Positions 233 through 48,660 of a DNA stretch of 57,712 nt are shown here, in pieces. The stretch lies in the IMG/VR virus record IMGVR_UViG_3300024309_000001, positions 1 to 57,712 of that record; one strand, given 5' to 3'. Position 1 is the first letter of the stretch. The number at the start of each line of letters is the position of its first letter. Origin of the DNA: a virus. Lineage: Duplodnaviria > Caudoviricetes. A program made the translations under genes and the position numbers. The notes below the pieces were generated by a model. The model was not told the DNA's origin. It saw nothing but the letters and a program-made list of their open reading frames with translations, and did no database searches.

Positions 233-3200
233 CTACTTCTGGCGCTCCCTCACCTGCTCGTCGGCCATCATCGCCAGGCGGTTGCGCGCCTGGTACAGCT
301 CGTCGAGGCGCGCCCGCTTCTCGTCTGCCGACAGATCACTGCGCTGGATGCGCTTGATGGCCTGGTTGATCTTGCTCAGCTGATTGCCGGCCGACTTGGC
401 GATCCCGTACAGTTTCGCCTCGCTGGACCGCTTCAGATCCTCGGCCCGCTCGACGTCGCCCATGGCGCGGGCTTGGTTGTAGGCGGAATAGACCTGGTTG
501 ACCTCGTTCTGCATGTCGTAGAACCGCTGGATGTACTTGCTGCTGGGCGAGGCCGCGTCCTTCACGAAGTCGCCGACCACGAACCAGTTGTCGATCTTGC
601 CCAGATCGCGGCGGGGATTCTCCGGCAGGTTGGACAGCGGCCGCGCCAGGTAATCGGCGACGTTCAGCGCCTGGGTCCCCAGCCAGCCGAAGTACCCGCG
701 CGCCAGGTGCTCCAACCGCTGAGGCGACATATTGATGGCGCGGCCCAGGGCCACTGCGCCGGCGCTGGTCTGGCCGGTGAAGCGCTCACCAGGCGGCAGC
801 CGTTCCTGGCCCATGCTGTCGATGGGACGCTCCCGGAAGGTGTCGTAATTGAATCCTGTCTCCATGGCTGGTTTCACGGCCTGGGGAATCGGGTTCATGG
901 CCAGTTGATCGCCCAGCACCCCCGCCACAGTCTTGGCAAAGTCGCCCAGCCGGTAGTCGTCACCGCCAAACGCCAGTTCCGTACCGCGCTCGACCACAGT
1001 GCCCAGTGCCCCGATCTCGAAGGGCTTCGGGACGTATACCATCTTGTCAGTGCCCGGCAGCTTCACCACCCAATAGGTATTCCGCACCCAGTCGGGCAGC
1101 GCCTTGTAGTCGTCGTCGTCCTTCATGGACAGGTACAGCAGGGCCGACGCCAGCCCGACCGCACCGGCCACCGCGGCGAACCGCGCCGGATTGTCGCGGA
1201 CGGCACGGCCCAGCTTGTACATGCCCTGGAGGCGCGCATTCATGAAGGGCACCACCTGGGTCAGCAGCCGCACGGCCGCGAAGGACCCGTGGCTGGTGAA
1301 GTCCATCAGATCGCGGGCGAGGTAGCTGGCCTCGAGGTGGGATTTCCCATTTCGGATGGCCGCGTCATAGATGGCCGCCCGGTTCACGGTCTCCGAGCGG
1401 TCGCCCAGATCCTGGTACCAGTCGAAAGCCTTTCGGGCGTAGCGCCGCAGATCCGCAGGCGACGACACCACCTGATCGGCGCTGACCTGCAACTCGTCGA
1501 CCAGGCGCTTCACGTTGCGGGCCTGGCCATCGTTGAAGGATCCGAAGCGCACCGCCCCGCCCCCGGCCAACAGCTTGCGCATCGTGGGCGATTCGCTGCC
1601 GGTGGCCTTCCATCCCTCGACCATGTTGCGCATCGGGTTCAGGCTGATCTCGCTGTCGATGGAGACCGCCTGCAGGCTGTCGCGCAACAGGTTGCGCACG
1701 CGGAACGTCGGCGAGATCGTCACCCCAATGGTCAGGGCGTGCTTCATCTTGCGCATGGCCCGCATGATGGGATCGTTCGATCCCACGTAGTGCAGTGAGG
1801 TCAGGGAATCCAGCACCATGGGGTCATCGACCATGTAGTGCTTCTCCTTGCCATCCACCATGATTCGCACGCTGTCCTTCTGTGCGGCGCCGATCTTCTC
1901 GGCGATGCCCATCTCCACTGCGGACTCCATGGCGCCCTGGGCGGCCAGGTTCTTCATGCTGGCCGAAAGCAGGTGCGACCAGTTGGAGACGGTGTTGGCC
2001 GTCAGGTCCCCGAGCTTTTCCTTGCCGCCCTTCAGCTTCTTGAACGCCCGCTGCCCCACCAAGCCGGCGATCTGCCCGGGGCCCATCGTGCCGGTGGCGT
2101 CGTTCTCCATCTCCCGGTAGAACGGCACGTAGAATTCATGCTCCCACAGCTTGCGGGCCTCGCTGTTGATCAGGCCGGCCTCCTGGGCGACATCGAGGAC
2201 GGACTTCTGCAACACGTTCAGATCCTTCAGCGCGGCCGCGTACACGTCGGCGCGCCGGCGGCCGTCCGGCATCTTGCCCAAGTTCAGGCGCTTGAGTGTC
2301 GCCACGTCGTCGGGCGTGAAGAGGTGTTCGCGCCCCTCGGCCAGCAGGCGCTCTGCCCGGTTTCCGGCGATCCACGCCATGAAGTGGTCGTGCTCCCCGC
2401 GCAGGCCGGCCAGGATGTCTGCCAGGCCCTTGCCGCCGGCGCCGTCGATGGCCCCGTCTGTCAGCTTGACGGCGCCGTGACGCACCAGATACTCGGCCGC
2501 GCCGTCCGTCCCCTTGGACAGACGCGCCTGCATGTAAGCGGTCGGGCTCAAAGCCTTCAAGGACAGGAAGTGGTCGAAGATGCCCTGCACTGCCTTGGCG
2601 CGCCAGCCGTCCTGCAGCTTGGCCAGCCGGTCCTGAATGGAGTCCGGCTTGGCAAAGGCGCCGATCTTCCCCAGGGTCCGGTCGCGCAACAGGCGCTCCG
2701 TCTTCGACAGGCTTTCGCCCGGGCGCACCGTGTTGGAAGCCTCGGGTTGCACGGGCTTGCTGGTGGGGGGCAACGTTGCCGCCCGCGATTCCACGGGCCC
2801 ACTGAAAAGCCCCGCATCTGGCGGGGCTTCGTTGTCATCCTGGTTGGGGCTCAGGCCGCTTTCTTGCCGCCCCAGATCTTCTCCCCGTAAGCCATCGCCT
2901 CGCGCATGTCCTTCCGCAAGGACTCGATCTCGGACGGCGTCAGGCGCTCCATTCCTGGACTCGGCTGAACCAAACTTCCACCCAGCCCTGCCTTCGGCAT
3001 TGACGATTTCTTTGATTTCATCTACGCTAATCGTGGCTCTTGCGCCGCTTTCCATATCCCCGGGTTTGGATCCTGGGTTGATGTTGGGGGTGGTGTCAGG
3101 AGCTTTTTGCTGGCTGATGCCCGACAAGTCATGATCATAAAAGAATTCGCCATTGTTGGCTTCCCTAATCAGTAGCCGCGCCACCCGCAAATCACCGCCA

Positions 3201-6200
3201 ATACGCACCGGAGCATACATTGTGTGCATAGCCCTGGTGCTGGTGTCTGATGCCAGCTTTGCGGGCGCGCTATGGCTCAGGGTTGCATGACGCAGCATGT
3301 CAGGCAGCGCAGCGATCGATTGAACCTTCTCGATGCGGGCGCTGCGCGACAGGGTTTCCTTCAGCCCGCGCCGCCCAACATGAATATCCCAGCCCTGCTC
3401 CGCATTACGGAACTGTTTTCCCTGCAGGTGCTCAGCCCCCCACTCCTTCGCCTGGTTACGCAGGGCAACCACACCATCAGCGGGATTGCCAAACTCTAAC
3501 CCGGAAACATCAGCAGTCGGCACGCCGGCCCTACCGTTGCTTGCCGCCATCGAAGCCGCAGCCATCCGCGTCCCAGAGAATGCCTGGTCCGCCTGCGTGC
3601 GGCGCAGGAACCGGCCAGCGTCGATCACCATCTGGCGCAGGTCGGCCGTCGTCAGCTTCAGATCGAACCCCATAGCCCGCAGCGCCGCCCGCATCTTGGC
3701 GTACAGACCCTGCAGGAAGTACTTACGGCCGCCGGTCTCGGCCATCCTGGCCAGGACCTCCCGTGCCCGGGCTTTTGCGCCGTAGTCCGGATACCGCATG
3801 CCCACCGCCTCCATGGTGGCGTAATTCTTGTCACCGGGCTGCTCGTTGCCGGTGGCGCGCTCCCCGGCCGGCACCCTGGCCAGGCGGCGCACGTCGGCCA
3901 ACACCCCATCGAATCGTTCGCCCAGCAAAGCCTCGACGCCGAAGTGCCCGACGATCTCGTGCGCCAGCACCTGCTGCAGGCGTTCCATCGTCGGCAGGTT
4001 GTCGGCCACCAGGTAGATGCGCCCACCGTCGCCAGCCGGGTAGTAGACGCCCTCGGCCATGTTGGAGGGTCCCTCTGGAATGTCCTTGACCGACTGGACG
4101 ACGGACACCTTCAGCCGTCCCGCCCCGGGCAACTTCTTCATGAAGGCGCCGGCGAACACCCGAGCATCAGCAACAGAAACCCCGGCGCCAGGCCGGGGTT
4201 GTCGGGATTCAAATTGACCGCCAGATCGCGGCACAAGCCGCTGTCCGGTTGGCGCCAGCGGCTTGCCGTCCGCGACGATATCGAGCGCGCGAATGCCGGC
4301 ATCCTCCAACGCCTTGTTCAGGTTCCGGGCCTGGTCAATGTTTCCCTCGGACTGCACAATCGTGATGGCGGACGAAGTATTGGCCTTCTCCACGCCGGCC
4401 ATCAGCTTTTCCAGGCCGCCGGTACCGCGCAGCCGCCCCATTTCGTGCGCCATCATCGGCAGGAACGCAACGGGCCTGTGCAGCGCGTTCAGCAGCATCA
4501 CGCCATCCCTGCCGCCAGAGATCCGCTCAGCCAATCCGGCAACATTCAAGGGATCCACCATATCGCCCAGCGTGCCGCGCTTGACGAACGTGCGCTCCAC
4601 GACAGGGATCTGCTTGGGGCGCGACACGGGCCGCACCTTCCCTCTGGCGATGTCGCCGCGGGCGTCCACATTGGAGAACGCGCCTTGGCCCACAGCCATC
4701 AGTCCCTTGTATTCGATCCGTCCGCCGCGCAGCAGGTCAGCGATCTTCTTGGACATCCTCAGGTCCGCGTTCGACAGCTCCGACACGCCAGACGGGTGGT
4801 TGTGAACCAGCCACATATGCTTGGCCCTCGGCACGCGCGCCGCGTGGCCAATGATGATGTCTGGCTCGATATCTGTGCTGGACTTCCGGCCCAGGCTGTG
4901 CCGCAAGACGCTGATCGGCATGCCGGCCTCATCGGTCAGCAGCATCATCAGATTCTCTTGGGGAGCCTTGCGGATGCTGGCCATGGCGCTGGCCACGGCA
5001 TCAGGGGAAGCGATGACGCCATCTGGAACCCTCAGGTCGAGGGTTTTCTTGGCTTCGACGCGGACGGCGAACTGGCTGCCTTCGGGTTCGATGATGATGG
5101 CGGCCGCCCGGGAACGAAGGCTCGGAAGCCGTACCGCACCGGATCCGGACTCAGTTCGAGTGGAGGCCGCACGCCGACCCCCTCCGCTGGAATTGGATAC
5201 CTCGGGCTCAAGGTCGAACCCTTGCCCGAAGAGGTCTTGCGTGCCATGAGATTCTTCTAGCCGCGTTGCGGCATCGTCGGCATTTGCAGGGCGGGCTCCT
5301 TCGTTTTCGCCCTGTTGCCTGCCTGCAGACCGATCCGAGTCAGCACGTCGGCCGCCTTTGGATCGCTCCACACCGAAGATGTCTTTTTGTCCTGTCGAGG
5401 CTTGTTCTCGGCCATAGCGATTCCTGATCAGGGCTTCGCCCCGGTTGATGATGTCGTCTGCCGACACCTGGGCGCCACCGAACATATCCTGGCTGCCGGC
5501 ACGCGCCTGTTCATTCTGGACGAACAATGCCATATCGCGCAAGGCCTCCGACACCCGACGCGGCGCGCGAATGTTGCCCCACAGCAGCCCGACCATGCGG
5601 TCGACCAGCGGATCACGCCCGAACAGATCCTGTTGGGCCAGGTGCTGATCCATATTTAGGCCCCGGGCCCGAGCATCGCGGATCTGGTGGACCGCCGCCG
5701 CCAGCTGCGGCCGGATGTCCAGAGGTCCAGCGTCCAAGCCCGCGAAGTCTGGTGCAGCCATGGTCAGCGCGTTCAGGATGTTGCGCACGTCCGGATCCGC
5801 GCTCTCGGACGCCATCGAGGTCAGTGCGTCGTCACCATAGGCGCGGTGGAACACGGCCGCCCGGGCGCGGTCCATGAACTGACGGGAGTAGTTGCCCTGG
5901 CCGTCCCGGATCTGGGCGGCATCCTCGCCCTGGTGCTGGACGGCGCGCACGAACGCATCCAGAAACCGGCGATTGGATGCCGAATCGAACGCTCCGGATT
6001 CGCCCATATCCAGCAGATCAACTGGCGTAATCCGCGCATCGTTGGCGGCTTGCTCCGTGGCAGACATGCCCAGGTTACTCTGGGGATTGGACAGCGCGCC
6101 CATGTTGGGGCGCCGGTTCTCGGCGTCCGCGTAGACGCGCACCAGGACCGGCTCGCGCTTGGCGCGAATGGCCTCAGGCGACACGCCGTGGGCCTGGGCG

Positions 6201-8713
6201 TCGTCAATCATGGCTTGGGTATAGGCACCAGCCTTCTTGCGACGGTACGCCTCCTGCAAGCCCGCCATACGGCCATTGTTCAGCGCCCGTACCTCGCCCG
6301 GCTTGGCGTCGGCATAGTAGGCGGCGTTCTCGGTGCCGTCAGCCGCGTGAGAGGCCAGCGCATCGGAGGCCTCGATCACCGCGTAGCGCACCGGGATCTT
6401 GGTGCCGTCGCCCAGGGTCACGCGGTCAGTGCGCCCCATGTCGGATTCCGGGATGCGCGCCGTGTCGCCAGCAACAGACACCATGGGGGCCGCCTCATTG
6501 GGCGATCGGCCGAACCCCAGGCGGTCGTAGTCCGGCGCATTGGCGATCCGGTTCATCTGCTCGATGCTGGCCGGGCGGCTGCGGTCGCGGTTCTGCCGGG
6601 ACAGGTCGGTGCCCGCTTGGTCGCGCTGGGCCACCGGCTTGGTGGTGTCGCCCTTCTTCAGCCACTCCTTGAACGCAGGCATATCCATGGGCGTCACCTT
6701 GCCCATGCCCTTCCACCCGCGCGAATAGCTGCGGCGGTAGGCCGTCTCGGCTTCCTTCTGGCTGCCGTAGCCCACCATGACCTTGTGCTCGTCGAACTTG
6801 CCGGTCTTGGGGTCCATCTGGTCCACCACGAACACGGGGCCGCTGTAGTCCTCGGCCGTGCCCGGCTTCAGGAACACGTCCACCTGGTCGCCGTCGGCGC
6901 CTTCCGTGCGCCGGACATAGCCGTAGTGCCCGGCCATGCGGTTGACCCATGGCTTGCCGCCCGGATCCGTGCCGCGCCGCTCAGACCCTTCCGGGTTCTC
7001 GATTGAGATGTCCAGCCCCGCCACGCGCACGTGGCCCTTGCGGTAGTTCCCGGCCTCTTTCTGGCCGTCCGTGGGCTCAACCGCTGGCGTGCCGACTGGC
7101 GAGGTTTGGGCGGCATGCGCCGCTTCGTCCACCGGCGTCTGAATGGCCTGCGGCCGGCCCGGATGGTTCCGGGCGGCGGTCTCCACATCCCGGGTCAGCC
7201 CCAGGTCGCCAGCCTCCCGCTGCCTGGCCAAGTCCGCCGACCGTTGCTCGGCCGTGCGCGCAGCCCCAGCAGAGTCCACGGTGACGGTCGGGGCAGGCAG
7301 CGCCAGGGTGGGCTCAGCCGCAGGTGCAGCAGGCGGCCGAGGGTTCGCTTCTGGACGGCCCGGGTGGTTGCGCCCTGCCGCCTGGACGTCATCGGTATAG
7401 CCAAGATTGTCCCGGGCCCAACGCTCCAGCTCATCCAGAGCGGCGCTTTCCATGCGCTGGCCGGCAGTTCTCGCCGTGCCGTCCTGGCCGACGGTCACCG
7501 TAGGAGCAGGCAGGGCCAGAGGATCGGCCGGCTCCTGTGCTTCCGCAGCTTCCATGCCGCGCCGGCCCGGATGGTTCCGGGCGGCGGCATCTTCGCGGCT
7601 CATAACCTGCCCATCAGCGTCCACCCTGAACGCATCCTGGCCGCTGGGCGACGGCAGGGCGAGCGGCGCGGCTGGCTCCTCGCCCTCGGCAGCGCGCTCG
7701 GCGGCGACCTTGCCATAGCGGTCCTGTACAGAATCACCAGCAGCCCGACCATGCGACAGCCCACCCACCACCGCGCCCACCGGGCCGCCCTGCGCGGCAC
7801 CCATCGCCGCCATCGCGGCAACGTTCTTGGTCGGGTCGATGCTGGGGTCGATCTTCTGGGCCGCGCGCTGCCCTTCGTACTGGGTCAGGCCTTCCTCGGC
7901 CGCCTCGGTCGCGGCCTCCACGGCGCCAGTTCCCAGGGCCCCGCGCAGGCCGCCCTGCGCCATACGCCCGCCGGCCAGTATCTTCTCGGCTCCGAACGCA
8001 CCGGCGGCCGCGCCAGCCAGGGCCGGCAGCAGACTGGCATCGCGCCCGGCCTCGCGCGCCAGGGTCTCGCGGATTTCCTTGGGCAGATAACCCTGGTCGG
8101 CCAGGGCTTGGGCCGGCTCGCTGGCCATCAGGGTGCGCTCCGGCATGCCCATCACCAGGTCGTAGGCGTTGCCCGCGGCATCACCACCGCTCAACGCAGC
8201 GCCCGTGCCAATGCCAGCAGCCCGGCCAGCCAGCGCCGCTCCGCGCTCTCCCCACCCCAGCAATCCGGCACCGACCCTGGCGCCCTTGATGGCCGCGCCT
8301 GGGACAAGGAAACTGCCGGCGGCCTGCGCGGCCGCCTGCAACGGGCTGTCCACGATATAGTCGCCAACGGCCTTCAGATCGTCGCCCACTCCTTCGGATT
8401 GCTTCAGGGCCTCGTTGAGCTTCGCGCGATCCGCTTTCACGACATCGCTCTGCTTCTCCTGTCCGGCCCTCACAAAATCGTCAGCAGCCCGCGAGAACCG
8501 ATTTCCCGGCACCGCGAAGTCAGCGACAGCGCCCAGGCCACCCACGGCAGCATTCGCCAGCTCGATCATGGTGTCATTGGCGACCGCGAACGGCGTCCGA
8601 GTTGCCGGCTCGGCCGGCTGGCCTGCGGTCGGCGCGCCATACCGCTCCCAAGGCTTCATGCCACCGGCTTCAGCACGGGCTGGCACCCGGTACTTCTCCC
8701 ACGGTCCGGCCAT
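233..8713 (-). CDS. Large polyvalent ejection protein (InPase-like, DdrB/ParB-like, RadC/JAB, zincin MPTase, LPD3/MuF-C-like, LPD38-like)
   Basis: 2826 aa; motifs GNYRKGH..IENPEGSER..HYGY..DGDQVDVF; NRDRSR..NNGR; HNHPSG..S..D; HEIVGH; FFYDHDL; YKALPDW..PKPFEIG. Confidence 0.85.
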   Translation of the reverse strand: MAGPWEKYRVPARAEAGGMKPWERYGAPTAGQPAEPATRTPFAVANDTMIELANAAVGGLGAVADFAVPGNRFSRAADDFVRAGQEKQSDVVKADRAKLNEALKQSEGVGDDLKAVGDYIVDSPLQAAAQAAGSFLVPGAAIKGARVGAGLLGWGERGAALAGRAAGIGTGAALSGGDAAGNAYDLVMGMPERTLMASEPAQALADQGYLPKEIRETLAREAGRDASLLPALAGAAAGAFGAEKILAGGRMAQGGLRGALGTGAVEAATEAAEEGLTQYEGQRAAQKIDPSIDPTKNVAAMAAMGAAQGGPVGAVVGGLSHGRAAGDSVQDRYGKVAAERAAEGEEPAAPLALPSPSGQDAFRVDADGQVMSREDAAARNHPGRRGMEAAEAQEPADPLALPAPTVTVGQDGTARTAGQRMESAALDELERWARDNLGYTDDVQAAGRNHPGRPEANPRPPAAPAAEPTLALPAPTVTVDSAGAARTAEQRSADLARQREAGDLGLTRDVETAARNHPGRPQAIQTPVDEAAHAAQTSPVGTPAVEPTDGQKEAGNYRKGHVRVAGLDISIENPEGSERRGTDPGGKPWVNRMAGHYGYVRRTEGADGDQVDVFLKPGTAEDYSGPVFVVDQMDPKTGKFDEHKVMVGYGSQKEAETAYRRSYSRGWKGMGKVTPMDMPAFKEWLKKGDTTKPVAQRDQAGTDLSRQNRDRSRPASIEQMNRIANAPDYDRLGFGRSPNEAAPMVSVAGDTARIPESDMGRTDRVTLGDGTKIPVRYAVIEASDALASHAADGTENAAYYADAKPGEVRALNNGRMAGLQEAYRRKKAGAYTQAMIDDAQAHGVSPEAIRAKREPVLVRVYADAENRRPNMGALSNPQSNLGMSATEQAANDARITPVDLLDMGESGAFDSASNRRFLDAFVRAVQHQGEDAAQIRDGQGNYSRQFMDRARAAVFHRAYGDDALTSMASESADPDVRNILNALTMAAPDFAGLDAGPLDIRPQLAAAVHQIRDARARGLNMDQHLAQQDLFGRDPLVDRMVGLLWGNIRAPRRVSEALRDMALFVQNEQARAGSQDMFGGAQVSADDIINRGEALIRNRYGREQASTGQKDIFGVERSKGGRRADSDRSAGRQQGENEGARPANADDAATRLEESHGTQDLFGQGFDLEPEVSNSSGGGRRAASTRTESGSGAVRLPSLRSRAAAIIIEPEGSQFAVRVEAKKTLDLRVPDGVIASPDAVASAMASIRKAPQENLMMLLTDEAGMPISVLRHSLGRKSSTDIEPDIIIGHAARVPRAKHMWLVHNHPSGVSELSNADLRMSKKIADLLRGGRIEYKGLMAVGQGAFSNVDARGDIARGKVRPVSRPKQIPVVERTFVKRGTLGDMVDPLNVAGLAERISGGRDGVMLLNALHRPVAFLPMMAHEMGRLRGTGGLEKLMAGVEKANTSSAITIVQSEGNIDQARNLNKALEDAGIRALDIVADGKPLAPTGQRLVPRSGGQFESRQPRPGAGVSVADARVFAGAFMKKLPGAGRLKVSVVQSVKDIPEGPSNMAEGVYYPAGDGGRIYLVADNLPTMERLQQVLAHEIVGHFGVEALLGERFDGVLADVRRLARVPAGERATGNEQPGDKNYATMEAVGMRYPDYGAKARAREVLARMAETGGRKYFLQGLYAKMRAALRAMGFDLKLTTADLRQMVIDAGRFLRRTQADQAFSGTRMAAASMAASNGRAGVPTADVSGLEFGNPADGVVALRNQAKEWGAEHLQGKQFRNAEQGWDIHVGRRGLKETLSRSARIEKVQSIAALPDMLRHATLSHSAPAKLASDTSTRAMHTMYAPVRIGGDLRVARLLIREANNGEFFYDHDLSGISQQKAPDTTPNINPGSKPGDMESGARATISVDEIKEIVNAEGRAGWKFGSAESRNGAPDAVRDRVLAEGHARGDGLRGEDLGRQESGLSPNQDDNEAPPDAGLFSGPVESRAATLPPTSKPVQPEASNTVRPGESLSKTERLLRDRTLGKIGAFAKPDSIQDRLAKLQDGWRAKAVQGIFDHFLSLKALSPTAYMQARLSKGTDGAAEYLVRHGAVKLTDGAIDGAGGKGLADILAGLRGEHDHFMAWIAGNRAERLLAEGREHLFTPDDVATLKRLNLGKMPDGRRRADVYAAALKDLNVLQKSVLDVAQEAGLINSEARKLWEHEFYVPFYREMENDATGTMGPGQIAGLVGQRAFKKLKGGKEKLGDLTANTVSNWSHLLSASMKNLAAQGAMESAVEMGIAEKIGAAQKDSVRIMVDGKEKHYMVDDPMVLDSLTSLHYVGSNDPIMRAMRKMKHALTIGVTISPTFRVRNLLRDSLQAVSIDSEISLNPMRNMVEGWKATGSESPTMRKLLAGGGAVRFGSFNDGQARNVKRLVDELQVSADQVVSSPADLRRYARKAFDWYQDLGDRSETVNRAAIYDAAIRNGKSHLEASYLARDLMDFTSHGSFAAVRLLTQVVPFMNARLQGMYKLGRAVRDNPARFAAVAGAVGLASALLYLSMKDDDDYKALPDWVRNTYWVVKLPGTDKMVYVPKPFEIGALGTVVERGTELAFGGDDYRLGDFAKTVAGVLGDQLAMNPIPQAVKPAMETGFNYDTFRERPIDSMGQERLPPGERFTGQTSAGAVALGRAINMSPQRLEHLARGYFGWLGTQALNVADYLARPLSNLPENPRRDLGKIDNWFVVGDFVKDAASPSSKYIQRFYDMQNEVNQVYSAYNQARAMGDVERAEDLKRSSEAKLYGIAKSAGNQLSKINQAIKRIQRSDLSADEKRARLDELYQARNRLAMMADEQVRERQK

Positions 8714-10095
8714 TACATCTTCTCCCAGTTGCTGGCGTCCGACGGGTCGCCGCCCTTGAACCGATAGCCGTCCTCGACGGCGCCGACCGTCGGGCCAGCG
8801 GTGTCCGCGGCACCACCATCGTTCATGCTGTCGTACAGTTCCAGGCCCTGCTGCAGCGCCTGCCTGGGGGTGAGCTTGTCGCTACCGAAGTCGCCGCGCT
8901 GGTTCGAGAGGATTGACTTCGCCGCATCCAGGGCGAATTCCTGACGCGATTTGGTGCGCGCTCCGCGCACCATGTCCCAGGCCGACGAGGCGTCCTTCGC
9001 CACGCCGTTTTCGATCAGCCATTTGGCGGTTCGCACTTCGGACGGCGCCGCCGCCTTGTTGTCCACCGAACCCTTGGCGGCGTCAGTTTTGCGCTGCTCC
9101 GCGCCTCGCGCCCCGATCTCGCTCAACGCCATACCGTGTTCAGCACCAGCCTTGCGGATACCCTCGTCCGTCTTGAAGCGCTCCTTCTCCTTGAAGGTCT
9201 GCATGTCGTACCAGTGCTTGGCCTGCTCGGCAAACATGGTCCGGTAGCCGCGGCCGTCGCCTATCGTGCTCAGGAACTGGGTGAGCGTCTGCTGGCTGAA
9301 CGGTTGCTGCACCGGCTGGCCGGTTTCGTGGTTGATCCCGTGGGCGATGTACACCGGCTGGCCGCCGGCCGTCTCCGGCCGCTTCTCGATGCTCTGCAAT
9401 TCGATCCCCGTCGGAGCGAACCGGTTCACAAACGGCACGAATGCATTGGGATCGCCGGTGAGGTCAAACCGGCTCATGGCCTCGCCGAACGCCTGATCCC
9501 GGTATTGGCCGATGGTTTTCTCGCGGGCGACCATCAGTTCGATGGCCTTGCCCGGGGCCCCCAGCTCCAGCGCCTTGCGGATGCCACGCGTCAGCGATTC
9601 CGCCATGTCGCCGAATTCACCGCCGCTCAGGAAGCCTTGTGGCGCCGGATTGTCTTTTTTTTTTGCCAAGCCGAGGGATGCGGCCTGCCGGTCCTGCTGC
9701 ACGGCCAAAGCGAGGCCTGGCGCCGCCGGCGCTTGCAGACCTGCGGCTTGGCCGCCGGCCTCCCGCGGCACACCGGCGGACTGGCCTATTGTGGGCTCCG
9801 ACATTTGCACGGGATACGCTTGCGCCTGCTCGGGTTGTTGGGCCATGCCGGGGTGCGCCATGACGGGTTCCGGCGTCTGCACCGGCATGGTTTCGGCTCC
9901 GCTGGGTTGTACACCGGCGGCCAGCATCATCGGCGACGACGTTTCCGGATCCAAGCCCTTGGATTTCATCGCTTCCGCGATTGCCGCATTGACCTCCTGC
10001 TCCTTCTTCTTCTCCTGCCCGCTCTGATAGGCGTTGTACAGCGCCATGCCATTATTCAGCCCCTGGGCCAGGCCCGCCGCAAATCCACTTGCCAT
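8713..10095 (-). CDS. Internal virion/ejection protein
   Basis: Starts MASGFAAGLAQG, helical, ends DGYRFKGGDPSDASNWEKM; TAATG overlap with the next gene. Confidence 0.7.
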   Translation of the reverse strand: MASGFAAGLAQGLNNGMALYNAYQSGQEKKKEQEVNAAIAEAMKSKGLDPETSSPMMLAAGVQPSGAETMPVQTPEPVMAHPGMAQQPEQAQAYPVQMSEPTIGQSAGVPREAGGQAAGLQAPAAPGLALAVQQDRQAASLGLAKKKDNPAPQGFLSGGEFGDMAESLTRGIRKALELGAPGKAIELMVAREKTIGQYRDQAFGEAMSRFDLTGDPNAFVPFVNRFAPTGIELQSIEKRPETAGGQPVYIAHGINHETGQPVQQPFSQQTLTQFLSTIGDGRGYRTMFAEQAKHWYDMQTFKEKERFKTDEGIRKAGAEHGMALSEIGARGAEQRKTDAAKGSVDNKAAAPSEVRTAKWLIENGVAKDASSAWDMVRGARTKSRQEFALDAAKSILSNQRGDFGSDKLTPRQALQQGLELYDSMNDGGAADTAGPTVGAVEDGYRFKGGDPSDASNWEKM

Positions 10096-32823: not shown

Positions 32824-32827
32824 GATC

Positions 32828-41543: not shown

Positions 41544-41558
41544 AGTGATGTCTCCGCT

Positions 41559-42080
41559 TTATTCGCCGAAATCGGCCAGGATGGTTTCGATCATTTCGGC
41601 CGCCGCCATGGGCGACAGGTGCGGCCACAGGATCTTCTGGGCATGCTCGGTGCGCAGGAACTGCACGGCATCGGCGTGAAAGGCCTCCATCGCGCCCTGT
41701 TCCATGCTGCTGTACCGGATCGACTTCACGACCGGGATCACGCCGCCCTTGGGGCCTGGGTACCAGTCCACCAGGCCGGCTCCGGTCTTGAGCCAGTCAC
41801 GGAACGGCCGGAACGCCTCAAACCGATCCTGGGCCTGGAAAATCGCCTGCTCCAACGCCATGTGCTTGCGGTGGTACCAGCCCAGGCGCTCCTGATTGGT
41901 ACTGATGTCCATCGCCTCGCCGGGCTCCAGCTTCCATATCCGGTTCCACAGGCGGCGCCATGCCTTCTGGTTGCGTTCGCCCAGACCGTCGACCATCTCG
42001 AAAACGGCCTTGCGCGCAACCGCCAGCTCCTGGTCGGTCAGGCTGATGTCGTGTCGGCGGACCAGGGTGATCTCGGCCAT
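41559..42080 (-). CDS. DUF1367-like phage protein
   Basis: FRDWLKTGAG..KSIRYSSMEQ. Confidence 0.6.
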   Translation of the reverse strand: MAEITLVRRHDISLTDQELAVARKAVFEMVDGLGERNQKAWRRLWNRIWKLEPGEAMDISTNQERLGWYHRKHMALEQAIFQAQDRFEAFRPFRDWLKTGAGLVDWYPGPKGGVIPVVKSIRYSSMEQGAMEAFHADAVQFLRTEHAQKILWPHLSPMAAAEMIETILADFGE

Positions 42081-42082
42081 GG

Positions 42083-42499
42083 TTACTGCCCCAGGCGCGC
42101 CCGGCTGTAGGCCAGAGCCCCCATCAGGTGCTGATCCAGCACCCAGCGGATGTAGTCGGCCTTGGGCCGGCCCGCCAGCCCGGCCAGCGCCACCACCGCG
42201 TCGTACAGTTCCTCGGTGACAGGCAGGTCCAGGCGATGCGTGCATTTGTCGCCGCCGCCCTGCCCGCCCATGCGCGATTCGGACGCATCATGGTCGTCAG
42301 CGCCCCCCCCCGACTGGCTGACCGCCAGCGCGCCCAGCGCGTGGATTTCCAGGACGCGGCGGGCGTACGCTGTCTTCGTGACATCGCACAGGCTGGCCAG
42401 CATCGTGATCTGGTCGTAGACCTGCTCCGACACCGGCACATCGAGCCGTAGTGTGTGGCGCGCACCCTCGGCGCGCTGCTGACGAGAATTGAAGAACAT
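42083..42499 (-). CDS. Tandem RHH-like regulator at the cII-like position
   Basis: Two copies of RLD.PV.E..YD....LA......K..Y.R.VL..H..GALA.S. Confidence 0.65.
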   Translation of the reverse strand: MFFNSRQQRAEGARHTLRLDVPVSEQVYDQITMLASLCDVTKTAYARRVLEIHALGALAVSQSGGGADDHDASESRMGGQGGGDKCTHRLDLPVTEELYDAVVALAGLAGRPKADYIRWVLDQHLMGALAYSRARLGQ

Positions 42500-42564
42500 G
42501 GGTTATCCGATAATGATCTGGTTCACCACCGGCCCGCCCTGCGGCAGACTGGCAGTATGGAAAA

Positions 42565-42933
42565 TCAGTCCTTTTTCTCGCCCTGTTCCAGCGCCTTGTT
42601 AGCAGCCAACGCAGCCGCTATCACTTCTTCGGCGGCGCTCTTCGGGGAGCATGCGGTTCGCCTTGCGACGTCGGCGGCAGCAGCGAGTGCCGCATCGAAA
42701 GCGCGTTGCCGATCTTGTGCGGCACGGATGACGGCGCTGAGAGCCAACTTCCGCACCATCGCGCCATCGCCCGCGCCGGTCGTTCCGCCCTCGGCGGCAC
42801 CGCTGACTCCCCCGGTAGCGCTAGATCCGAACGGGTATCCGTCCACCTTCACCGGCACGCCGAACAGCTTGGCCACGAGGTGGACCGGCCACAGCCGCCA
42901 CGCCGGGTATTGCGTCAATTCCTGGTTGATCAC
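42565..42933 (-). CDS. Hypothetical protein
   Basis: AGGAG RBS with GTG start. Confidence 0.55.
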   Translation of the reverse strand: MINQELTQYPAWRLWPVHLVAKLFGVPVKVDGYPFGSSATGGVSGAAEGGTTGAGDGAMVRKLALSAVIRAAQDRQRAFDAALAAAADVARRTACSPKSAAEEVIAAALAANKALEQGEKKD

Positions 42934-43054
42934 GGTTTTCTCCTGTCAGATGTCGGTAGGCCCGATGGGGATTTTTTTGTCCCGTTCCGGGCTGCGGTCC
43001 GGACTGTCACCCGTATGATCGACAGCACCCAAACCCCCACAGAGGAAGGCGCCG

Positions 43055-43339
43055 ATGACCGTCCCCACCATTTCTGTCGAAGCACTGCATGGACGCCTCA
43101 TCGCATGCGCCTCCCTAGTGAATTCCCTAGTGCGCGTGCTGCCCATCGAACAGCTGCGCGAACTGGAGCAAGAATTGACGGACGACTCGGAATACGGACG
43201 CGGCTTTCTGCTGACGCAGCCCTGTCCGGATCGGACAATCGACGCCTACGACGCCTACGCGCAAGCGCACTTGAGGGTCGTACGCCACGCGATTCAGGCC
43301 CGGCAAGAGCCTCCCACGCCCGGCGACGATCCTCTGTAG
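43055..43339 (+). CDS. Counter-oriented hypothetical protein
   Basis: GAGGAAGG RBS; TATGAT -10 at 43014. Confidence 0.55.
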   Translation: MTVPTISVEALHGRLIACASLVNSLVRVLPIEQLRELEQELTDDSEYGRGFLLTQPCPDRTIDAYDAYAQAHLRVVRHAIQARQEPPTPGDDPL

Positions 43340-43356
43340 AAACCAGCCGCCGCGGA

Positions 43357-43623
43357 TCACGCATGCTCAGCCTCCCGCGGGAGATTCGCAGCGGCTTTCC
43401 CATTGGTCGCCAATTCAGGCCAGATCAGGTGCCAGTCGTCCGGCCGCAGGTCGCGGCGGGTTACGGCACCATCGGTGGCGACCTCGATGGCGGCGCAACG
43501 ATCGGCAGGAATTTTCCTTCGTCCATCCCTCCAGAAGCACACCGCCTGTGGGGTGACGTGGATGGCTCGGGCCAGCGCTGATGCGCTGCCCATCTTCCGG
43601 ATGGCGGTTTGGATAGGGTTCAT
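43357..43623 (-). CDS. cro: Cro/YdaS-like repressor
   Basis: SALARAIHVTPQAVCFW..IEVATDGAVTRRDLRPD. Confidence 0.85.
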   Translation of the reverse strand: MNPIQTAIRKMGSASALARAIHVTPQAVCFWRDGRRKIPADRCAAIEVATDGAVTRRDLRPDDWHLIWPELATNGKAAANLPREAEHA

Positions 43624-43631
43624 ACGTCGCA

Positions 43632-43698
43632 ATTCTACACTTGTAGATATTTATCATCAACAACTGTATTTGATGGCACTTCTACACCTGTTTAAAGT
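43632..43698. promoter_or_regulatory. OR region: divergent promoters and three operators
   Basis: TCTACA-nn-TGTAGA at 43634, variants at 43657 and 43681; TTGATG-17-TAGAAT (-), TTGATG-17-TAAAGT (+). Confidence 0.8.
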
Positions 43699-43705
43699 GT
43701 GGGCC

Positions 43706-44182
43706 ATGGCACTAGGCAAGCAAATTAAGTTCTATCGCGAAAAGCTGAATCTCACTCTGGAGCAACTGGAGGAGATATCGGGTGTAGGCACAGGCACGAT
43801 CAACGCCCTGGAAGTGAGGGATAGCGTGCGCTCCAAGTTTGCGCCCGCTCTTGCCGCTGCCTTCAGGCTATCTGTTGAGCAACTTCTGGATGAGTCACGT
43901 GATTGGCTCTCCGAAGCGGCACACCAACAATCGACAACTGGTAGCGGCAAGAAGGTTGCCGCGCTTTCGGATCTGGCTGCTGTTGAACTATGGACACGCT
44001 ATCAGCGCGCCAACCGTGCGGCACAATTGGTGGTTGATCTCGCGCTTGGCCGCCGGGTCCAACCCCAGGATGAAGCACTAAAGCATTCAGTACAGGCAGC
44101 GATATCGGTCGCAGCCGCCTCTTTTCCAAAAGAAAAACACACGAAATCCGCCAAAAAGCGGGAAAGTTCTGCTGTTTCCTAA
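43706..44182 (+). CDS. cI: CI-like XRE repressor without S24 domain
   Basis: LGKQIKFYREKLNLTLEQLEEISGVGTGTINALE; divergent from cro. Confidence 0.8.
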   Translation: MALGKQIKFYREKLNLTLEQLEEISGVGTGTINALEVRDSVRSKFAPALAAAFRLSVEQLLDESRDWLSEAAHQQSTTGSGKKVAALSDLAAVELWTRYQRANRAAQLVVDLALGRRVQPQDEALKHSVQAAISVAAASFPKEKHTKSAKKRESSAVS

Positions 44183-44206
44183 AATTTTTGATCCTGACAT
44201 TTCAAA

Positions 44207-44449
44207 ATGAAAAAATGACAACTGAATATATTTTTCAGGTACATAGTCTACGGACTCGCCAGCATCTCCATACTACTGGCTGTTGGCGGCCTGTCGTCTT
44301 GGACAACTGCCAAGCGGCCCGAGTTATTGCTGTCTTCGCTTGTTTCTATCGGTTTTTCTGTGGTGACCATAGTGAAAATCACGTGGCGGCCATTGATGGC
44401 AGGTTTCCTGCTGAATCGGACTATTCAGCTCATGGAGAGAAAATCATGA
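44207..44449 (+). pseudogene. Membrane-protein gene with broken 5' end
   Basis: MKK*QLNIFFRYIVYGLASISILLAVGG..LLLSSLVSIGFSVVTIV..; stop overlaps the next ATG. Confidence 0.55.
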
Positions 44450-44727
44450 AGCCATCCCTCATTACCTCGGCTTTGATCATTTGCGCCGCTCTGTCTGGAT
44501 GCGCATCGGTCAGTGAGGTCTCTCAGTTGGACAAAAACACATACTTCCTCACCGTAGATACCGGAAACCAACAATTCACCACCGGCGACTTGCTGAGCAA
44601 GGCTTCCGTCAAGGCAACTGAGTTTTGTGGCAAGCGGGGTCGCTCAATGTCCGCTATCGGGTCAGACCTGGATCATCGGGGCTTTGGCAATCGAGATCTG
44701 ACGCTTCGGTTTCGGTGCGTAGAGTGA
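44446..44727 (+). CDS. Lipoprotein (superinfection-exclusion candidate)
   Basis: LSGC lipobox, GGAGA RBS, two further Cys. Confidence 0.75.
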   Translation: MKPSLITSALIICAALSGCASVSEVSQLDKNTYFLTVDTGNQQFTTGDLLSKASVKATEFCGKRGRSMSAIGSDLDHRGFGNRDLTLRFRCVE

Positions 44728-45092
44728 TGGAGGGTAAATTCTTGCTCGCCGTGCCAGCCCTCGCAATTGGTGCTGTGCTTGGCTATTATGGTTCTGGCTT
44801 GTTTGATGTGGCGGACATGACGCCTTATCAGCGATGCGTGGATGACGCATCCCGCAGGCCGACCAATAACGGGGTAAGAGCGGCATTCGAGTTGTGCCGG
44901 ACTAGGTTCTCACCGCCATCAGGGCTGGAAAGCACCGCTGAGCCTGTCGCAAAGCATGGCCCGTGGAATAAATACGCGGAAAAACGCGATGACCTTTGTC
45001 TAGCACTGAAAAACGCTAAATCTACCGGTGCGACTGACGACGCTCGACGTCTTGAGGAATTCATAAACTCAAACAGCCTCGAATGTGAATAA
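44727..45092 (+). CDS. Membrane-anchored protein with ejection-protein-like motifs
   Basis: N-terminal TM, Cys pair, GPWNKY, LCLALKNAKSTGATDDARRL. Confidence 0.7.
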   Translation: MEGKFLLAVPALAIGAVLGYYGSGLFDVADMTPYQRCVDDASRRPTNNGVRAAFELCRTRFSPPSGLESTAEPVAKHGPWNKYAEKRDDLCLALKNAKSTGATDDARRLEEFINSNSLECE

Positions 45093-45240
45093 CACCGCCT
45101 CACATTAGCCAAATAAGGCATCCTTCAACCCCGCATCCGGATGCGGCCACATCGCTGCCGCCGCCACGCCAAGACGCTCTGCCCTCCTTCACTTGATGGT
45201 TCTTTTTTAGCCATCTCGATGGCGGCGCTTTTCCTAGAAT

Positions 45241-45315
45241 TCTACACTTGTTGACAGAAATAAATCTACATGTGTAGAATTCATCCCAAGCCCTCACGGG
45301 CGCGTTCTTTCACAA
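45241..45315 (+). promoter_or_regulatory. PL/OL with boxA-like site
   Basis: TTGACA-18-TAGAAT; operators at 45241 and 45265; GTTCTTTCACAA resembles boxA. Confidence 0.8.
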
Positions 45316-45396
45316 CTTGGGATTCAGAGGAGAGGCGCAGGAATGCGCGCCTTTCGGTCAGGATTACGCAGGGCAGCGTCAACTGCCCCGCGCTTC

Positions 45397-45498
45397 CTAG
45401 GTCACGGCGATCAGGATGATGGCGGCAACAGCCCGTAAGACTGCGGCCACATCAACAATCACGTCCACCTTCACAGACACTTTCCGGCTCATTTGCAT
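45397..45498 (-). CDS. 31-33 aa hydrophobic peptide (type I toxin-like)
   Basis: (MQ)MSRKVSVKVDVIVDVAAVLRAVAAIILIAVT*, followed by GC-rich hairpins. Confidence 0.5.
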   Translation of the reverse strand: MQMSRKVSVKVDVIVDVAAVLRAVAAIILIAVT

Positions 45499-45867
45499 GT
45501 CCAAGAAAGCCTGTGGCCACAGGCGTTAAGCCTGGTGTATTTGTATACCGCCCCTGCTCGGCGGTTGCGGGTCGCGTACCTAGGATGCTCCCCGCCCCCC
45601 AGTGCCAAGCCAAGGATTGCTTAGCTCGCTGGGAGCGGCTTGCGTCACCTAAGGCTTTCGTCGCAGCCGCCGTCTGTCGCGTTTCGCCGGTCACTTGGTC
45701 GGAATGCGAACAGTGCGACTGTCGTTTTGCCTTGGCGACGCGCACCTGTTAGCGGCTCGTGAGGCCGCAACCGAGGTTCACGGCCTCGGCTGGAAAAGCA
45801 TAGCACTACTCCCCCTCCCCTGAATCCCCGGTTTTGAAAGCTTTCATGGGGATGAAAGGAGGAAGTC

Positions 45868-46095
45868 ATGGGTGTCTTTGAATACTCGATCTTGTGGATC
45901 AACCTGCTGGCGATCGCGGCGACGTGCGACAGCATTTGGGTCAGTCACATCCGGCCGATTCTGGCGCGGAAATATGGCTGGCCGGATCTGGATCCCGACG
46001 AGCTGATCCCGGCACAAGCCTGGATCGGCGCGCTGGCCGTCATTGCGATCCTGTTCATCGCGGTGCCGGTCATCGGCAACGCGGCGGGGTTCTGA
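45868..46095 (+). CDS. Small two-TM membrane protein
   Basis: AAGGAGG RBS; two hydrophobic segments. Confidence 0.7.
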   Translation: MGVFEYSILWINLLAIAATCDSIWVSHIRPILARKYGWPDLDPDELIPAQAWIGALAVIAILFIAVPVIGNAAGF

Positions 46096-46096
46096 T

Positions 46097-46429
46097 ATGG
46101 CCACGATCAAAGCAACAGTGGGCGCCTGGCTGAGCAGCGATTACGCCCAACAACGGTTCGTTGAGGGCCGACAGAGCGGAGACCCCGCCCGCACGCTGGC
46201 CGCAATTGCCCTCAACCACCAAGACATGACCGACTGTGGCTGGACGCGCATTGGGGAAGCGACTGTCACGCTCGAAGTCGCGGAAGACAGCCAGATCCGT
46301 CAGAACATGGTCAGCGCCCTGCAGGAGCAGAAGAGGTCCGTACTGGCGAAAGCCCAACGCGAGGCCATGCAAATCGAAGAACGGATCCAGAACCTGCTGG
46401 CGATCAGCTTCGACGGGAGCGTGTCATGA
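46097..46429 (+). CDS. Hypothetical protein
   Basis: GWTRIGEATVT plus coiled coil ending IQNLLAI. Confidence 0.7.
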   Translation: MATIKATVGAWLSSDYAQQRFVEGRQSGDPARTLAAIALNHQDMTDCGWTRIGEATVTLEVAEDSQIRQNMVSALQEQKRSVLAKAQREAMQIEERIQNLLAISFDGSVS

Positions 46430-46614
46430 GTTCCTGGCCCTATATCGGCGGCCCCTGCGTGGAGCCGCCAGACGACGAGCTCGACGACATCCAAAAACGT
46501 CAGCACGAGGAAGATGCGGCCGAGGATGCGTACTTTGAAACGCGGGCGTGCCGGGATGAACTCGCCGATGCCGCCGAGGACATCTGGCTGCGGTCAAGGG
46601 GGCTCGAGGCATGA
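46426..46614 (+). CDS. Small acidic protein
   Basis: ATGA overlaps on both sides. Confidence 0.6.
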   Translation: MSSWPYIGGPCVEPPDDELDDIQKRQHEEDAAEDAYFETRACRDELADAAEDIWLRSRGLEA

Positions 46615-47417
46615 GCGACATCGTCAAAGTCCGCGCCTCCAGCTGGGCCAGCCTGTTCGACTGCGCCCACCGCTGGGAGGGCGAACATCTGCTAGGCATC
46701 CGCAAGCCGGCCGGCATGCGGGCGCTGCTGGGCACGGCAGTCCACGCCGGGACTGCGGCGTACGACCGCGGCCGCATGTACGGCTCCGGTGTCACGGCCG
46801 ACGAGGCGGCCGGCGTGGTCGTGGATACGCTGCATGACCCGCAATTCGAGGTGGACCGCAGCCAAGACGACCTGAGCTTGCGCGAGACCGAGCGCATCGC
46901 GCTGACCGCCCACAGCCTGTACTGCGCCGAGGTCAGCCCACAGTTCCAGTTCGTCGGGGTGGAGAACACGCTGGACCCGCTGGACATCGATTGCGGCAAT
47001 GGCGTGACGATCCGGCTGACCGGCACGATGGACCGGGCGCGGGCCGCGCAGACCGAGGCCGGGCCGGTCATCGCCGACGTGAAGACCGGCACTCGCGTGA
47101 TCGAGCAAGGCCGCGCAAGCACGCGTGGCCGCGCCGCCCAGACCGGCACCTACCAGCTTATGTACGAGCACACCGAGCGCGTCAGCACCGCCGGCAGCCA
47201 GATCCTTGCGCTGTCCACCACCAGCACGCCGGCCGCGGCCGTCAGCCCGGTATTCGACGCCCGCCGCGTGATGGTGGGCGCCGAAGGCCAGCCCGGTCTG
47301 ATCGAACACGCGGCCGCGATGTTCAAGTCCGGCCTGTTCCCCCCGAATCCATCCAGCCCGCTGTGCAGCCCGAAGTACTGCCCGCGCTGGGAAACCTGCC
47401 TGTTCCGCGAACGCTGA
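46611..47417 (+). CDS. Cas4/RecB-like PD-(D/E)xK exonuclease
   Basis: DC..GTAVH..GTMD..ADVKTG..Q..Y..CSPKYC..C. Confidence 0.8.
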   Translation: MSDIVKVRASSWASLFDCAHRWEGEHLLGIRKPAGMRALLGTAVHAGTAAYDRGRMYGSGVTADEAAGVVVDTLHDPQFEVDRSQDDLSLRETERIALTAHSLYCAEVSPQFQFVGVENTLDPLDIDCGNGVTIRLTGTMDRARAAQTEAGPVIADVKTGTRVIEQGRASTRGRAAQTGTYQLMYEHTERVSTAGSQILALSTTSTPAAAVSPVFDARRVMVGAEGQPGLIEHAAAMFKSGLFPPNPSSPLCSPKYCPRWETCLFRER

Positions 47418-47446
47418 ACCACAGAAAAATACTGAGGAGAATCACC

Positions 47447-48658
47447 ATGGCAACCAACCTCGCCAGCCTGCGGCAAGACGCCGACGCCGAAAAGCCGGCG
47501 GCCAGGACGATCATGCAGTACCTGAAAGACGATTCCCGCGTCAATAAAGGCATCGCTGCGGTCGCCGGAAAATATTTCACGGCGGAACGCTTCCTGCACC
47601 TGGCCGTGAATGCTGTGCGGAAAGCCCCGTTGCTGGCGCAGTGCGATCCGCAATCGGTGCTGGGCGCCTTCATGTCATCCGCTGCCCTGGGCCTGGAGCC
47701 GAACACCGTGCAGCAGCAGGCGTTCTTGATCCCCTACAAAAAGCGGGCCAGGGTCTACAACAACGACACCGACAAATGGGAATGGATCGACGCCTACGAC
47801 TGCCAATTTCAGATTGGCTATCGGGGTTTCATCACCCTCGCACACCGCAGCCCGCACATCAAGAGCATCCAGGCCGAAGCGATCCATGAGAGCGATAAGT
47901 TCGAGCACATGATCGGGTCAGATTCCTTCCTGAAATACCAGAAGACTCTGCGTGATCGCGGCGAACTGATCGGCGCGTTTTCCTACGTCAAACTTGAAAG
48001 CAACACGGAAACGTCCGTGGTGCTGACGCTGGATGACATCCTGAACATCCGCTCCAAGTCCGAAACCTACAACACGCTCGTCCGCAACGTCGAGCAGGCG
48101 GAGAACGATCAAGAGCGCGCCAAAGCACAGCGCAAACTGGACGAAACCCCGTGGGTGCGGTGGCCCGATGAAATGTCCTCGAAGTCGGCGATCAAGCGCC
48201 ATTCCAAGCAACTGCCCCTGAACCCCGGGGATGCACTGTCGGCAGCTGCGGTCATCGACAACCAGGCCGAGGCCAACGTGATCGACATGGCCGCCATGGC
48301 CGATCCGGATGTCGCTCGCGGCGTCGTGCAAGACGGCTACGAACCGCCCGTCTTGGAAGACGACCCCAGCCCCACGATCCCGGCCATGGACATTCCGCAG
48401 CGGGAAGCCGAGCCGCTGGTGGTCAATACCGGCCGCCAGGCCCGGAAGGAGGCCGCCCAGCAGGACGTAGCCTTGGACCCGTCCATCGTCCTGACGGCGA
48501 TCCGGACAGCCAAGGACCAGGGCGCGCTGGAAAGCGCCGGTATGGGCATTCAGGACTGCCCGCCGGTATCGCAAGCCATGCTGGGCGAGGCCTACCGCAA
48601 GCGCATGAACGAACTCGCCGACAGCGCCGCCGCCGGCAACTCTCTGAGCCTGGAGTAA
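47447..48658 (+). CDS. recT: RecT-family recombinase
   Basis: CDPQSVLGA..LGLEPN..FQIGYRG..PWVRWPDEMSSKSAIKR. Confidence 0.9.
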   Translation: MATNLASLRQDADAEKPAARTIMQYLKDDSRVNKGIAAVAGKYFTAERFLHLAVNAVRKAPLLAQCDPQSVLGAFMSSAALGLEPNTVQQQAFLIPYKKRARVYNNDTDKWEWIDAYDCQFQIGYRGFITLAHRSPHIKSIQAEAIHESDKFEHMIGSDSFLKYQKTLRDRGELIGAFSYVKLESNTETSVVLTLDDILNIRSKSETYNTLVRNVEQAENDQERAKAQRKLDETPWVRWPDEMSSKSAIKRHSKQLPLNPGDALSAAAVIDNQAEANVIDMAAMADPDVARGVVQDGYEPPVLEDDPSPTIPAMDIPQREAEPLVVNTGRQARKEAAQQDVALDPSIVLTAIRTAKDQGALESAGMGIQDCPPVSQAMLGEAYRKRMNELADSAAAGNSLSLE

Positions 48659-48660
48659 CC

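Follow-up and report, generated by a model that had tools for sequence, protein, structure and literature searches.

A predicted periplasmic protein encoded beside a phage repressor carries a peptide matching an ejection-protein motif and might act in superinfection exclusion

P22 SieA and a small number of other proteins are known to exclude superinfecting phages at the stage of DNA entry. To our knowledge, how the proteins involved recognise their targets is largely open, and the Ltp protein is said to target the tape measure protein. P22 SieA, which is located in the inner membrane, blocks DNA injection of related podophages via the gp20/gp16 conduit, with escape mutations in gp16 and gp20 (PMC10883804). 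Ltp-type lipoproteins, represented by that of S. thermophilus phage TP-J34, are presented in PMC3952083 as prophage-encoded, surface-exposed exclusion proteins. For the HXS system, PMC13128918 describes a periplasmic effector, HxsA, that arrests phage DNA entry. The locus described here encodes a protein, P0002, that in the prophage state may exclude superinfecting phages at DNA entry from the periplasm, by mimicking the docking peptide of their ejection proteins. This proposal is drawn from sequence comparison, and we rate it as plausible though a little short of an even chance.

The window, i.e. the whole stretch of DNA analysed, is a complete virus record of 57,712 bp. In DNA comparison, Achromobacter phage CF418P1 is the cultured phage nearest to it, and a related prophage (G024) sits in an Alcaligenaceae genome. 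On the + strand, a cI-like HTH gene is followed by a small frame with two transmembrane (TM) helices, the lipoprotein gene P0003 and, as last gene, P0002 (Table 1); the latter three are joined by stop/start overlaps. The sequence confirmed an earlier description of P0002 as the last gene of a cI-lipoprotein cluster, encoding an anchor, a Cys pair, a linker and the hexapeptide GPWNKY. The GC content of the cluster is 0.52 compared to 0.64 for the whole window, and the cluster therefore resembles acquired cargo. A simple scan of the + strand from the repressor gene to the end of P0002 found no terminator-like sites, and the cluster is presumably co-transcribed. An RNA-labelled (metatranscriptomic) run contained window positions 30000-49999 whole, as identical contigs of even depth with late genes included, and is uninformative on lysogenic expression. 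Two DNA runs contained scattered short pieces of the same interval only.

The repressor shows weak similarity to that of the G024 prophage (E 1e-5), and the two-TM frame shares 69% identity over 71 aa with L036:1194-1409. ATG, GTG and TTG are absent from this frame ahead of the first TM helix, which reflects either gene decay or the use of an unusual start codon, CTG and ATA both occurring near the 5' end. P0003 has no family matches above cut-offs. In L036, a signal-peptide remnant alone remains of the window's lipoprotein gene.

Table 1. Positions of the features discussed, in the window unless an accession is given.
Feature	Position	Strand	Remarks
cI-like HTH repressor	43706..44182	+	first gene of rightward cluster; Pfam HTH_3, E 3.1e-6
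Small two-TM ORF, 76 codons stop to stop	44219..44449	+	stop overlaps lipoprotein start
Lipoprotein P0003, 93 aa	44446..44727	+	lipobox LSGC; stop overlaps P0002 ATG
P0002, 121 aa	44727..45092	+	signal anchor/signal peptide, hairpin 1 (C37-C57), disordered linker, hairpin 2 (C92-C120)
GPWNKY hexapeptide of P0002	44958..44975	+	copy of ejection-protein N-terminal motif
Y, 2826-aa polyvalent virion protein	233..8713	-	gp16-like position; InPase, ddrB-ParB, RadC, LPD3, LPD38 domains
Tandem N-terminal motif of Y	8639..8707	-	GPWEKY 8690-8707, KPWERY 8639-8656
X, 479 aa	8713..10152	-	upstream of Y; stop overlaps Y start
X C-terminal tag GAVEDGYRFKGGDPSDASNWEKM	8716..8784	-	core kept in viral, bacterial and phiC725A loci
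F116-like four-cysteine ORF, 116 aa	LT603684.1 45089-45436 (= L046:1707-2057)	-	unannotated, between gene 0052 and X

P0002 has a hydrophobic N-terminus (residues 5-24), a first cysteine pair (C37/C57), a linker, GPWNKY at residues 78-83 and then LCLALKNAKSTGATDDARRLEEFINSNSLECE, which contains C92/C120. The AF2 model (mean pLDDT 66) places helices at residues 33-41, 47-60, 84-100 and 103-115, such that each cysteine pair flanks a predicted helix pair. Residues 61-83, between the two helical hairpins, are of low confidence, and this stretch ends at GPWNKY. No L-x-x-C lipobox is present at the P0002 N-terminus, whereas the neighbouring P0003 has one. Searches of P0002 against PHROG, Pfam, NCBIfam and PADLOC gave zero matches at E<=1, and a fold search of the model against the PDB and BFVD returned nothing significant (best E 0.7).

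The P0002 family is defined here as P0002, P0004, P0005 and the protein encoded at L054:1474-1683 (the G024 protein), the fourth member, found in the related Alcaligenaceae prophage. The family is small. Scoring of 1.84 billion representatives yielded two true relatives and one spurious repeat protein. In word-index searches, P0002 retrieved itself alone and profile A1 the three known members alone, while tblastn of P0002 against 50,697 phage records gave noise alone (E of at least 2). Profile A1 found no related loci in viral contigs, none in genome contigs and one in metagenome contigs. With HMMER, P0004 matched at E 6e-14, P0005 at E 6e-7 and the G024 protein at E 1e-23. Profile A4, applied to 29-30 related records, returned the G024 protein and two marginal matches, one of which was noise and the other of which had an internal stop. 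Only sub-threshold matches (E 0.02-0.25) were obtained for P0004 and P0005 in Pfam, NCBIfam and PADLOC.

All four members have an export signal followed by C-x2-DAS-x-RPT-x2-GVR-x-A-x3-C-x2-R-[FY], with 16 invariant columns (alignment A4), and protein identity within the family is 34-45%. Beyond this core the members differ in layout. P0002 (121 aa; anchor or signal) and P0004 (117 aa; signal peptide) both consist of hairpin 1, linker and hairpin 2, P0002 with GPWNKY and P0004 with no PW motif. P0005 (167 aa) has a polytopic N-terminus and ends after hairpin 1 in TEDGPWNRYK, i.e. with the hexapeptide GPWNRY. The G024 protein (69 aa; signal) ends after hairpin 1 without a PW motif, and the DNA downstream of its short gene contains no linker or motif remnant. 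The gene lies downstream of a prophage repressor and beside a lipoprotein gene in all three known contexts (the window, L036 and G024). Comparison of P0002 with P0005 shows no conservation of the linker, yet both proteins retain the hexapeptide (GPWNKY/GPWNRY), which argues for selection on the peptide. However, as two of the four members (P0004 and the G024 protein) are without the motif, the conserved core of the family is hairpin domain 1 rather than the peptide. The Y protein of the G024 prophage itself carries MAGPWEKY...GPWQRY, although its P0002-family member lacks the motif. Hence, the expectation that homologs would keep the motif held for P0005 and failed for half of the family, including the prophage with the closest ejection protein.

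The periplasmic location of the family is suggested by the cleavable-looking signal peptide of P0004, the paired cysteines and the polytopic anchor of P0005. For P0002, sequence features support a C-terminal part that faces the periplasm, with the N-terminus either anchored or cleaved; the earlier proposal of a repressor-linked envelope protein was thus borne out at the level of prediction. A different outcome was obtained for the segment following GPWNKY, which the sequence-only reading had taken for a second ejection motif (L..AL.NA) stacked on the first. This segment belongs to a folded hairpin: LCLALKNAKSTGATDDARRLEEFI is the best-predicted part of the P0002 model (pLDDT ~90). The domain is also conserved in P0004 (ICVAAEGARAAGNTDDVRRLEEFI), where the L..AL.NA pattern is missing. 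The pattern occurs in none of the ejection-protein loci examined, its sole other match being out-of-frame. We therefore rejected L..AL.NA as a displayed peptide, and read LCLALKNAKSTGATDDARRLEEFI in the model as a fold element instead.

The proteins that GPWNKY resembles are encoded at the other end of the window. Y contains InPase, ddrB-ParB, RadC, LPD3 and LPD38 domains, which we take to be the domain set of polyvalent virion proteins (Pfam LPD families), and is therefore assigned to this class. Its gene is the last of a late operon in which terminase, portal, internal virion protein, transglycosylase and fibre are also encoded. Y starts MAGPWEKYRVPARAEAGGMKPWERY (MAGPWEKY...KPWERY), and the upstream protein X ends in a tag of the form G.VEDGYRFKGGDP.....NWEK. 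The tag core was present in 34/34 viral loci, 6/6 bacterial loci and phage phiC725A, i.e. in all 41 loci examined, which derive from phages of Alpha-, Beta- and Gammaproteobacteria. X proteins are overall merely 15-21% identical, and Y is also highly divergent outside the junction motif. Throughout, there is an overlap of the X stop with the start of Y, which opens with MAGPWEKY...[GKP]PW.[KR][YF], with KPWEEF as the phiC725A variant (window 8639-8784(-), L002-L035, L048-L053 and L046).

The 34 viral loci were found with a MAGPWEKY seed, so that the first motif copy is present by construction, while the second is not. A second.PW.. copy was found 9-30 residues downstream in 31/31 distinct N-termini, with 30 of these 31 second copies ending in Y or F, and the tandem pattern is also seen in all six bacterial prophage loci. 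This supports the claim that GPWEKY is a hallmark of ejection-protein N-termini. The motif-bearing Y-type proteins are otherwise heterogeneous (383-1093 aa). Five of the ten scanned matched PHROGs, including DNA transfer, DNA ejection and internal virion protein with endolysin domain, and four of ten scanned X proteins have a CHAP, SLT, phage-lysozyme or P22 Inj_translocase domain in Pfam. X and Y are therefore considered ejection proteins of the P22-injectosome kind. A string search of a paper library for GPWEKY/GYRFKGG-type junction strings found none.

Both junction motifs are absent from CF418P1. Its giant polyvalent-protein gene (L047, OQ817832.1 8822-16876) is annotated 'putative portal' and matches the C-terminal part of the window's Y at 75% DNA identity; the window's real portal is at 27362-29593. 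The CF418P1 Y begins with GIEFKDN/GIEFVDFP elements, akin to the P22 gp16 start. In P22, the X/Y junction motifs are absent, with no PW motif at the ends of gp16 and gp20. P22 genes 20 and 16 also overlap stop/start (L060, P22 11484 junction). The gp16 start, MKVTANGKTFNFPDG, loosely resembles the DGYRFKGGDP tag, but lies on the other side of the junction.

The pattern PW.[KR][YF] occurs at three sites in the six frames of the window, two of which are in the Y N-terminus and one in P0002. A 6-column matrix was built from the second motif copies of 31 other phages, and is hence independent of the window. It scores the first Y copy at 26.8 bits, the second at 22.4 bits and GPWNKY of P0002 at 19.4 bits, with the next best site at 13.1 bits. 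As the third-best site in the window, GPWNKY thus does match the GPWEKY start of the giant ejection protein, as had been noticed from the sequence. A score of 19.4 bits was reached by 7 of 200,000 shuffles of P0002, and such a site was found in 0/20 shuffles of the 80,374-residue six-frame set. For the window as a whole, the chance of a match of this grade is estimated at ~0.02, which is notable but alone not decisive because the match was picked after the fact.

P0002 carries a single internal copy, outside the virion module, and resembles the motif without being a tandem-motif virion protein; that the ejection proteins have two copies argues against mimicry. A search for additional PW.KY copies inside genes was negative in all 23 other motif-bearing viral records. 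PW.KY sites in these records number 43; 42 of them mark the start of Y, and the remaining one lies antisense to a terminase-like gene. The R and F variant patterns occur at control level in related records, and G027 has a GPWHKY site that lies antisense to a TolB-like gene, hence not an in-gene copy. Across IMG/VR, GPWNKY[ADEGV] was found in eight stretches, six of them in frames of at most 68 codons and two in unrelated ORFs. Comparison of the motif codons of P0002 with the Y DNA revealed no shared stretch beyond the motif, and capture of a Y fragment is therefore not indicated.

A second lineage with a matching peptide is provided by the F116-like Pseudomonas phage phiC725A. Its X tag is GYRFKGGNPSDQNNWEKV (GYRFKGGNP..NWEKV), and its Y (3787 aa) starts MADTSKPWEEF...EKPWEEF. 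Whether PWEE[YF] occurs elsewhere in the 64-kb genome was a question set before looking. The pattern was found at the two Y N-terminal sites and at exactly one more, where base composition gives an expected chance count of ~0.007 (an estimate) and a reversed control pattern had 0 matches. The additional site lies in a four-cysteine ORF (Table 1) encoding a signal peptide, two C-x20-C-x3-Y units and the tail YDEEKKPWEEYQNLQKDNQP, which ends KKPWEEY. The ORF has a GC content of 0.44 compared to 0.64 for its flanks, and is conserved at 88-99% in 10 Hollowayvirus records; in one draft record the reading frame of the tail is lost behind a run of A. In LKA5, the annotation of the corresponding region consists solely of predicted promoters and terminators, and in Atpa001 it consists of three short opposite-strand CDS. 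A term search of the phiC725A paper found no passage on the 116-aa ORF. The covariation proposed between such peptides and each phage's own motif is therefore seen in this lineage, in which the injected protein has KPWEEF twice and the product of a secreted moron has KPWEEY. In both lineages with a known Y, the tail peptide matches the phage's own Y variant.

The F116-like ORF and its relatives P0009 and P0010 carry Pfam PF28034 (VF_A0006-like four-cysteine protein), clusters of which have 53-99 members and are listed mostly as Bacteria. P0009 is 54% identical to the F116-like ORF and ends EDGPWLKYK, while the tail of P0010 is without PW. An ejection-type protein in L072 likewise has DGPWLKYK, as its second motif. 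The AF2 model of P0007 (pLDDT 78, pTM 0.71) contains two hairpins like those of P0002 and a moderately confident tail helix (tail pLDDT 58-67); its cysteines are spaced by 20 and 20 residues, compared to 19 and 27 in P0002. Fold searches with P0007 gave nothing significant (PDB by Foldseek, best E 2.9; VIA wide, best Z 4.0). Comparison of the P0002 and four-cysteine families by hhalign gave E 0.11, and E 0.011 at a probability of 3.9%. Profile A5 had zero matches in the window at E<=0.1 and none on 29-30 related records. Should the two families be unrelated, they would have arrived at the same peptide by convergence, and a functional reading would be favoured.

Among 401 sampled Pseudomonadota genomes, 10 have proteins of this hairpin type. 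Seven chromosomal two-hairpin proteins (L075, L077-L082; 162-220 aa) have two Cys-stapled VF_A0006-type hairpins, and six of them have the tail [ED]G[DE].F.[PA]L.PWQ[GA]GQ; L082, the seventh, terminates in PAKAGR. A [KR/E][YF] finish, as in the ejection motif, is confined to phage-borne members, the chromosomal PW tails ending PWQ[GA]GQ. Because chromosomal proteins with the same hairpins end in a PWQGGQ-type tail, a PW tail may be intrinsic to the hairpin fold family, as a wider habit.

In the mechanism that we propose, P0002 would be expressed in the lysogen from the moron cluster reading out from the repressor, and its N-terminus, anchored or cleaved, would take it across the inner membrane. 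The two disulfide-stapled hairpins and the flexible linker would then reside in the periplasm, the linker displaying GPWNKY as a copy of the tandem [GKP]PW.[KR][YF] head of gp16-like ejection proteins. This peptide could compete with incoming ejection proteins for the docking partner of their N-termini, putatively the C-terminal tag of the gp20-like X or a host envelope factor. The DNA conduit across the envelope would then fail to assemble, leading to superinfection exclusion by peptide mimicry. We infer prophage expression, binding, the identity of the partner and exclusion itself. By position, the X tag is the obvious candidate partner, but it is invariant to the Y variant in F116-like phages; since their X tag is ordinary although the Y motif differs (KPWEEF), X is not favoured in this role. 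Complex prediction for X residues 420-479 with P0002 residues 28-121 (28-row alignment) scored 0.10 against a mark of 0.32 and gives no answer either way.

A broader formulation, held more tentatively, is that in temperate podophages with P22-type injectosomes X tag and Y head constitute a docking code, and that at least two lineages have independently placed a copy of their own variant on secreted, disulfide-stapled mini-proteins, thereby jamming the conduit of their relatives. The code would consist of the X tag G.VEDGYRFKGGDP.....NWEK beside the Y tandem GPW.KY, with copies PW[EN]KY here and KPWEE[FY] in F116-like phages. Exclusion specificity would be set by the swappable tail peptide, a form of short-linear-motif mimicry.

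The observations on which this decoy interpretation was to be judged point in both directions. Envelope location, the motif itself, its fit to the matrix and the covariation in F116-like phages stand in its favour, while the loss of the second motif, the two motif-less members out of four and the absence of extra copies in 23 records weaken it. The latter two, together with the PW-less tail of P0010, are what one would expect if P0002 had another envelope role (e.g. lysogenic conversion, stress or cell-surface change) and its PW peptide were unrelated to ejection proteins, arising by coincidence or loose convergence. Further points for such a role are that the F116-like ORF belongs to PF28034, with its mostly bacterial clusters of 53-99 members, and that the chromosomal two-hairpin proteins of the 401-genome sample show PW tails without the [KR][YF] finish. 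We nevertheless consider it rather unlikely, as both the close fit to the ejection motif (19.4 bits; the DGPWLKYK identity) and the tracking of the phage's own Y variant in two lineages are left unexplained. It is highly improbable that the ORF is silent or decaying and matches the motif by chance. An orphan-like gene with four members among billions of proteins, adjoining a 2-TM ORF without a canonical start, might suggest as much. However, the 34-45% identity with an invariant core (C..DAS.RPT..GVR.A...C..R), the stop/start overlaps with the upstream genes and the shuffle statistics argue against it.

Exclusion at DNA entry could also be achieved with the roles reversed: the Cys-stapled hairpin would bind PW peptides and capture the N-terminus of the incoming Y, the protein's own peptide being a pseudo-ligand that serves autoinhibition or head-to-tail self-association rather than a decoy. 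Such a receptor would account for hairpin domain 1 being the only part common to all four members, with the motif-less members keeping their immunity-region position, and for the recurrence, in three sequence groups, of hairpin domains combined with a PW tail at the C-terminus. It equally predicts a tail variant identical to the own Y variant, as seen in both lineages with known Y, and thus shares this observation with the decoy. We judge both the receptor and the assignment of the own peptide to autoinhibition or self-association improbable: the P0007 tail has a pLDDT of just 58-67, the P0002 motif lies in a low-confidence stretch, any hairpin-peptide contact is purely hypothetical, and homology between the P0002 and four-cysteine families is unproven.

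If mimicry by P0002 is true, target recognition at DNA entry would consist of a copied six-residue peptide, providing a readable specificity code that links a prophage exclusion gene to the ejection proteins it blocks. A function would also be assigned to the hyperconserved X-tail/Y-head junction motif. As the same architecture is present in cultured F116-like phages that infect a laboratory host, the idea is directly testable.

Y has the domains of polyvalent virion proteins, while its N-terminal tandem PW motif and the X tag were not found by string search of a paper library. PF28034 proteins are small and secreted, with two C-x20-C-x3-[YF] helical hairpins, and P0002 domain 1 has a similar appearance (C-x19-C-x3-F, in a predicted helical hairpin). 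P0002 differs from the Ltp proteins in having no lipobox, a Gram-negative host, another fold and another proposed logic. HXS, as described in PMC13128918, comprises four bacterial genes, involves rSAM maturation and is proposed to capture DNA electrostatically; in contrast to P0002, it is not a moron and involves no mimic peptide. P0002 has no sequence relation to SieA (no PHROG or Pfam matches at E<=1), and ejection-peptide mimicry goes unmentioned for SieA in the abstract of PMC10883804. The genes are also placed differently, sieA lying just after gene 16 in the P22 record and P0002 beside the repressor. By analogy, P22 SieA would still be the nearest functional precedent: it is a prophage-expressed envelope protein according to the same source (PMC10883804), and P0002 is proposed to be one that likewise excludes.
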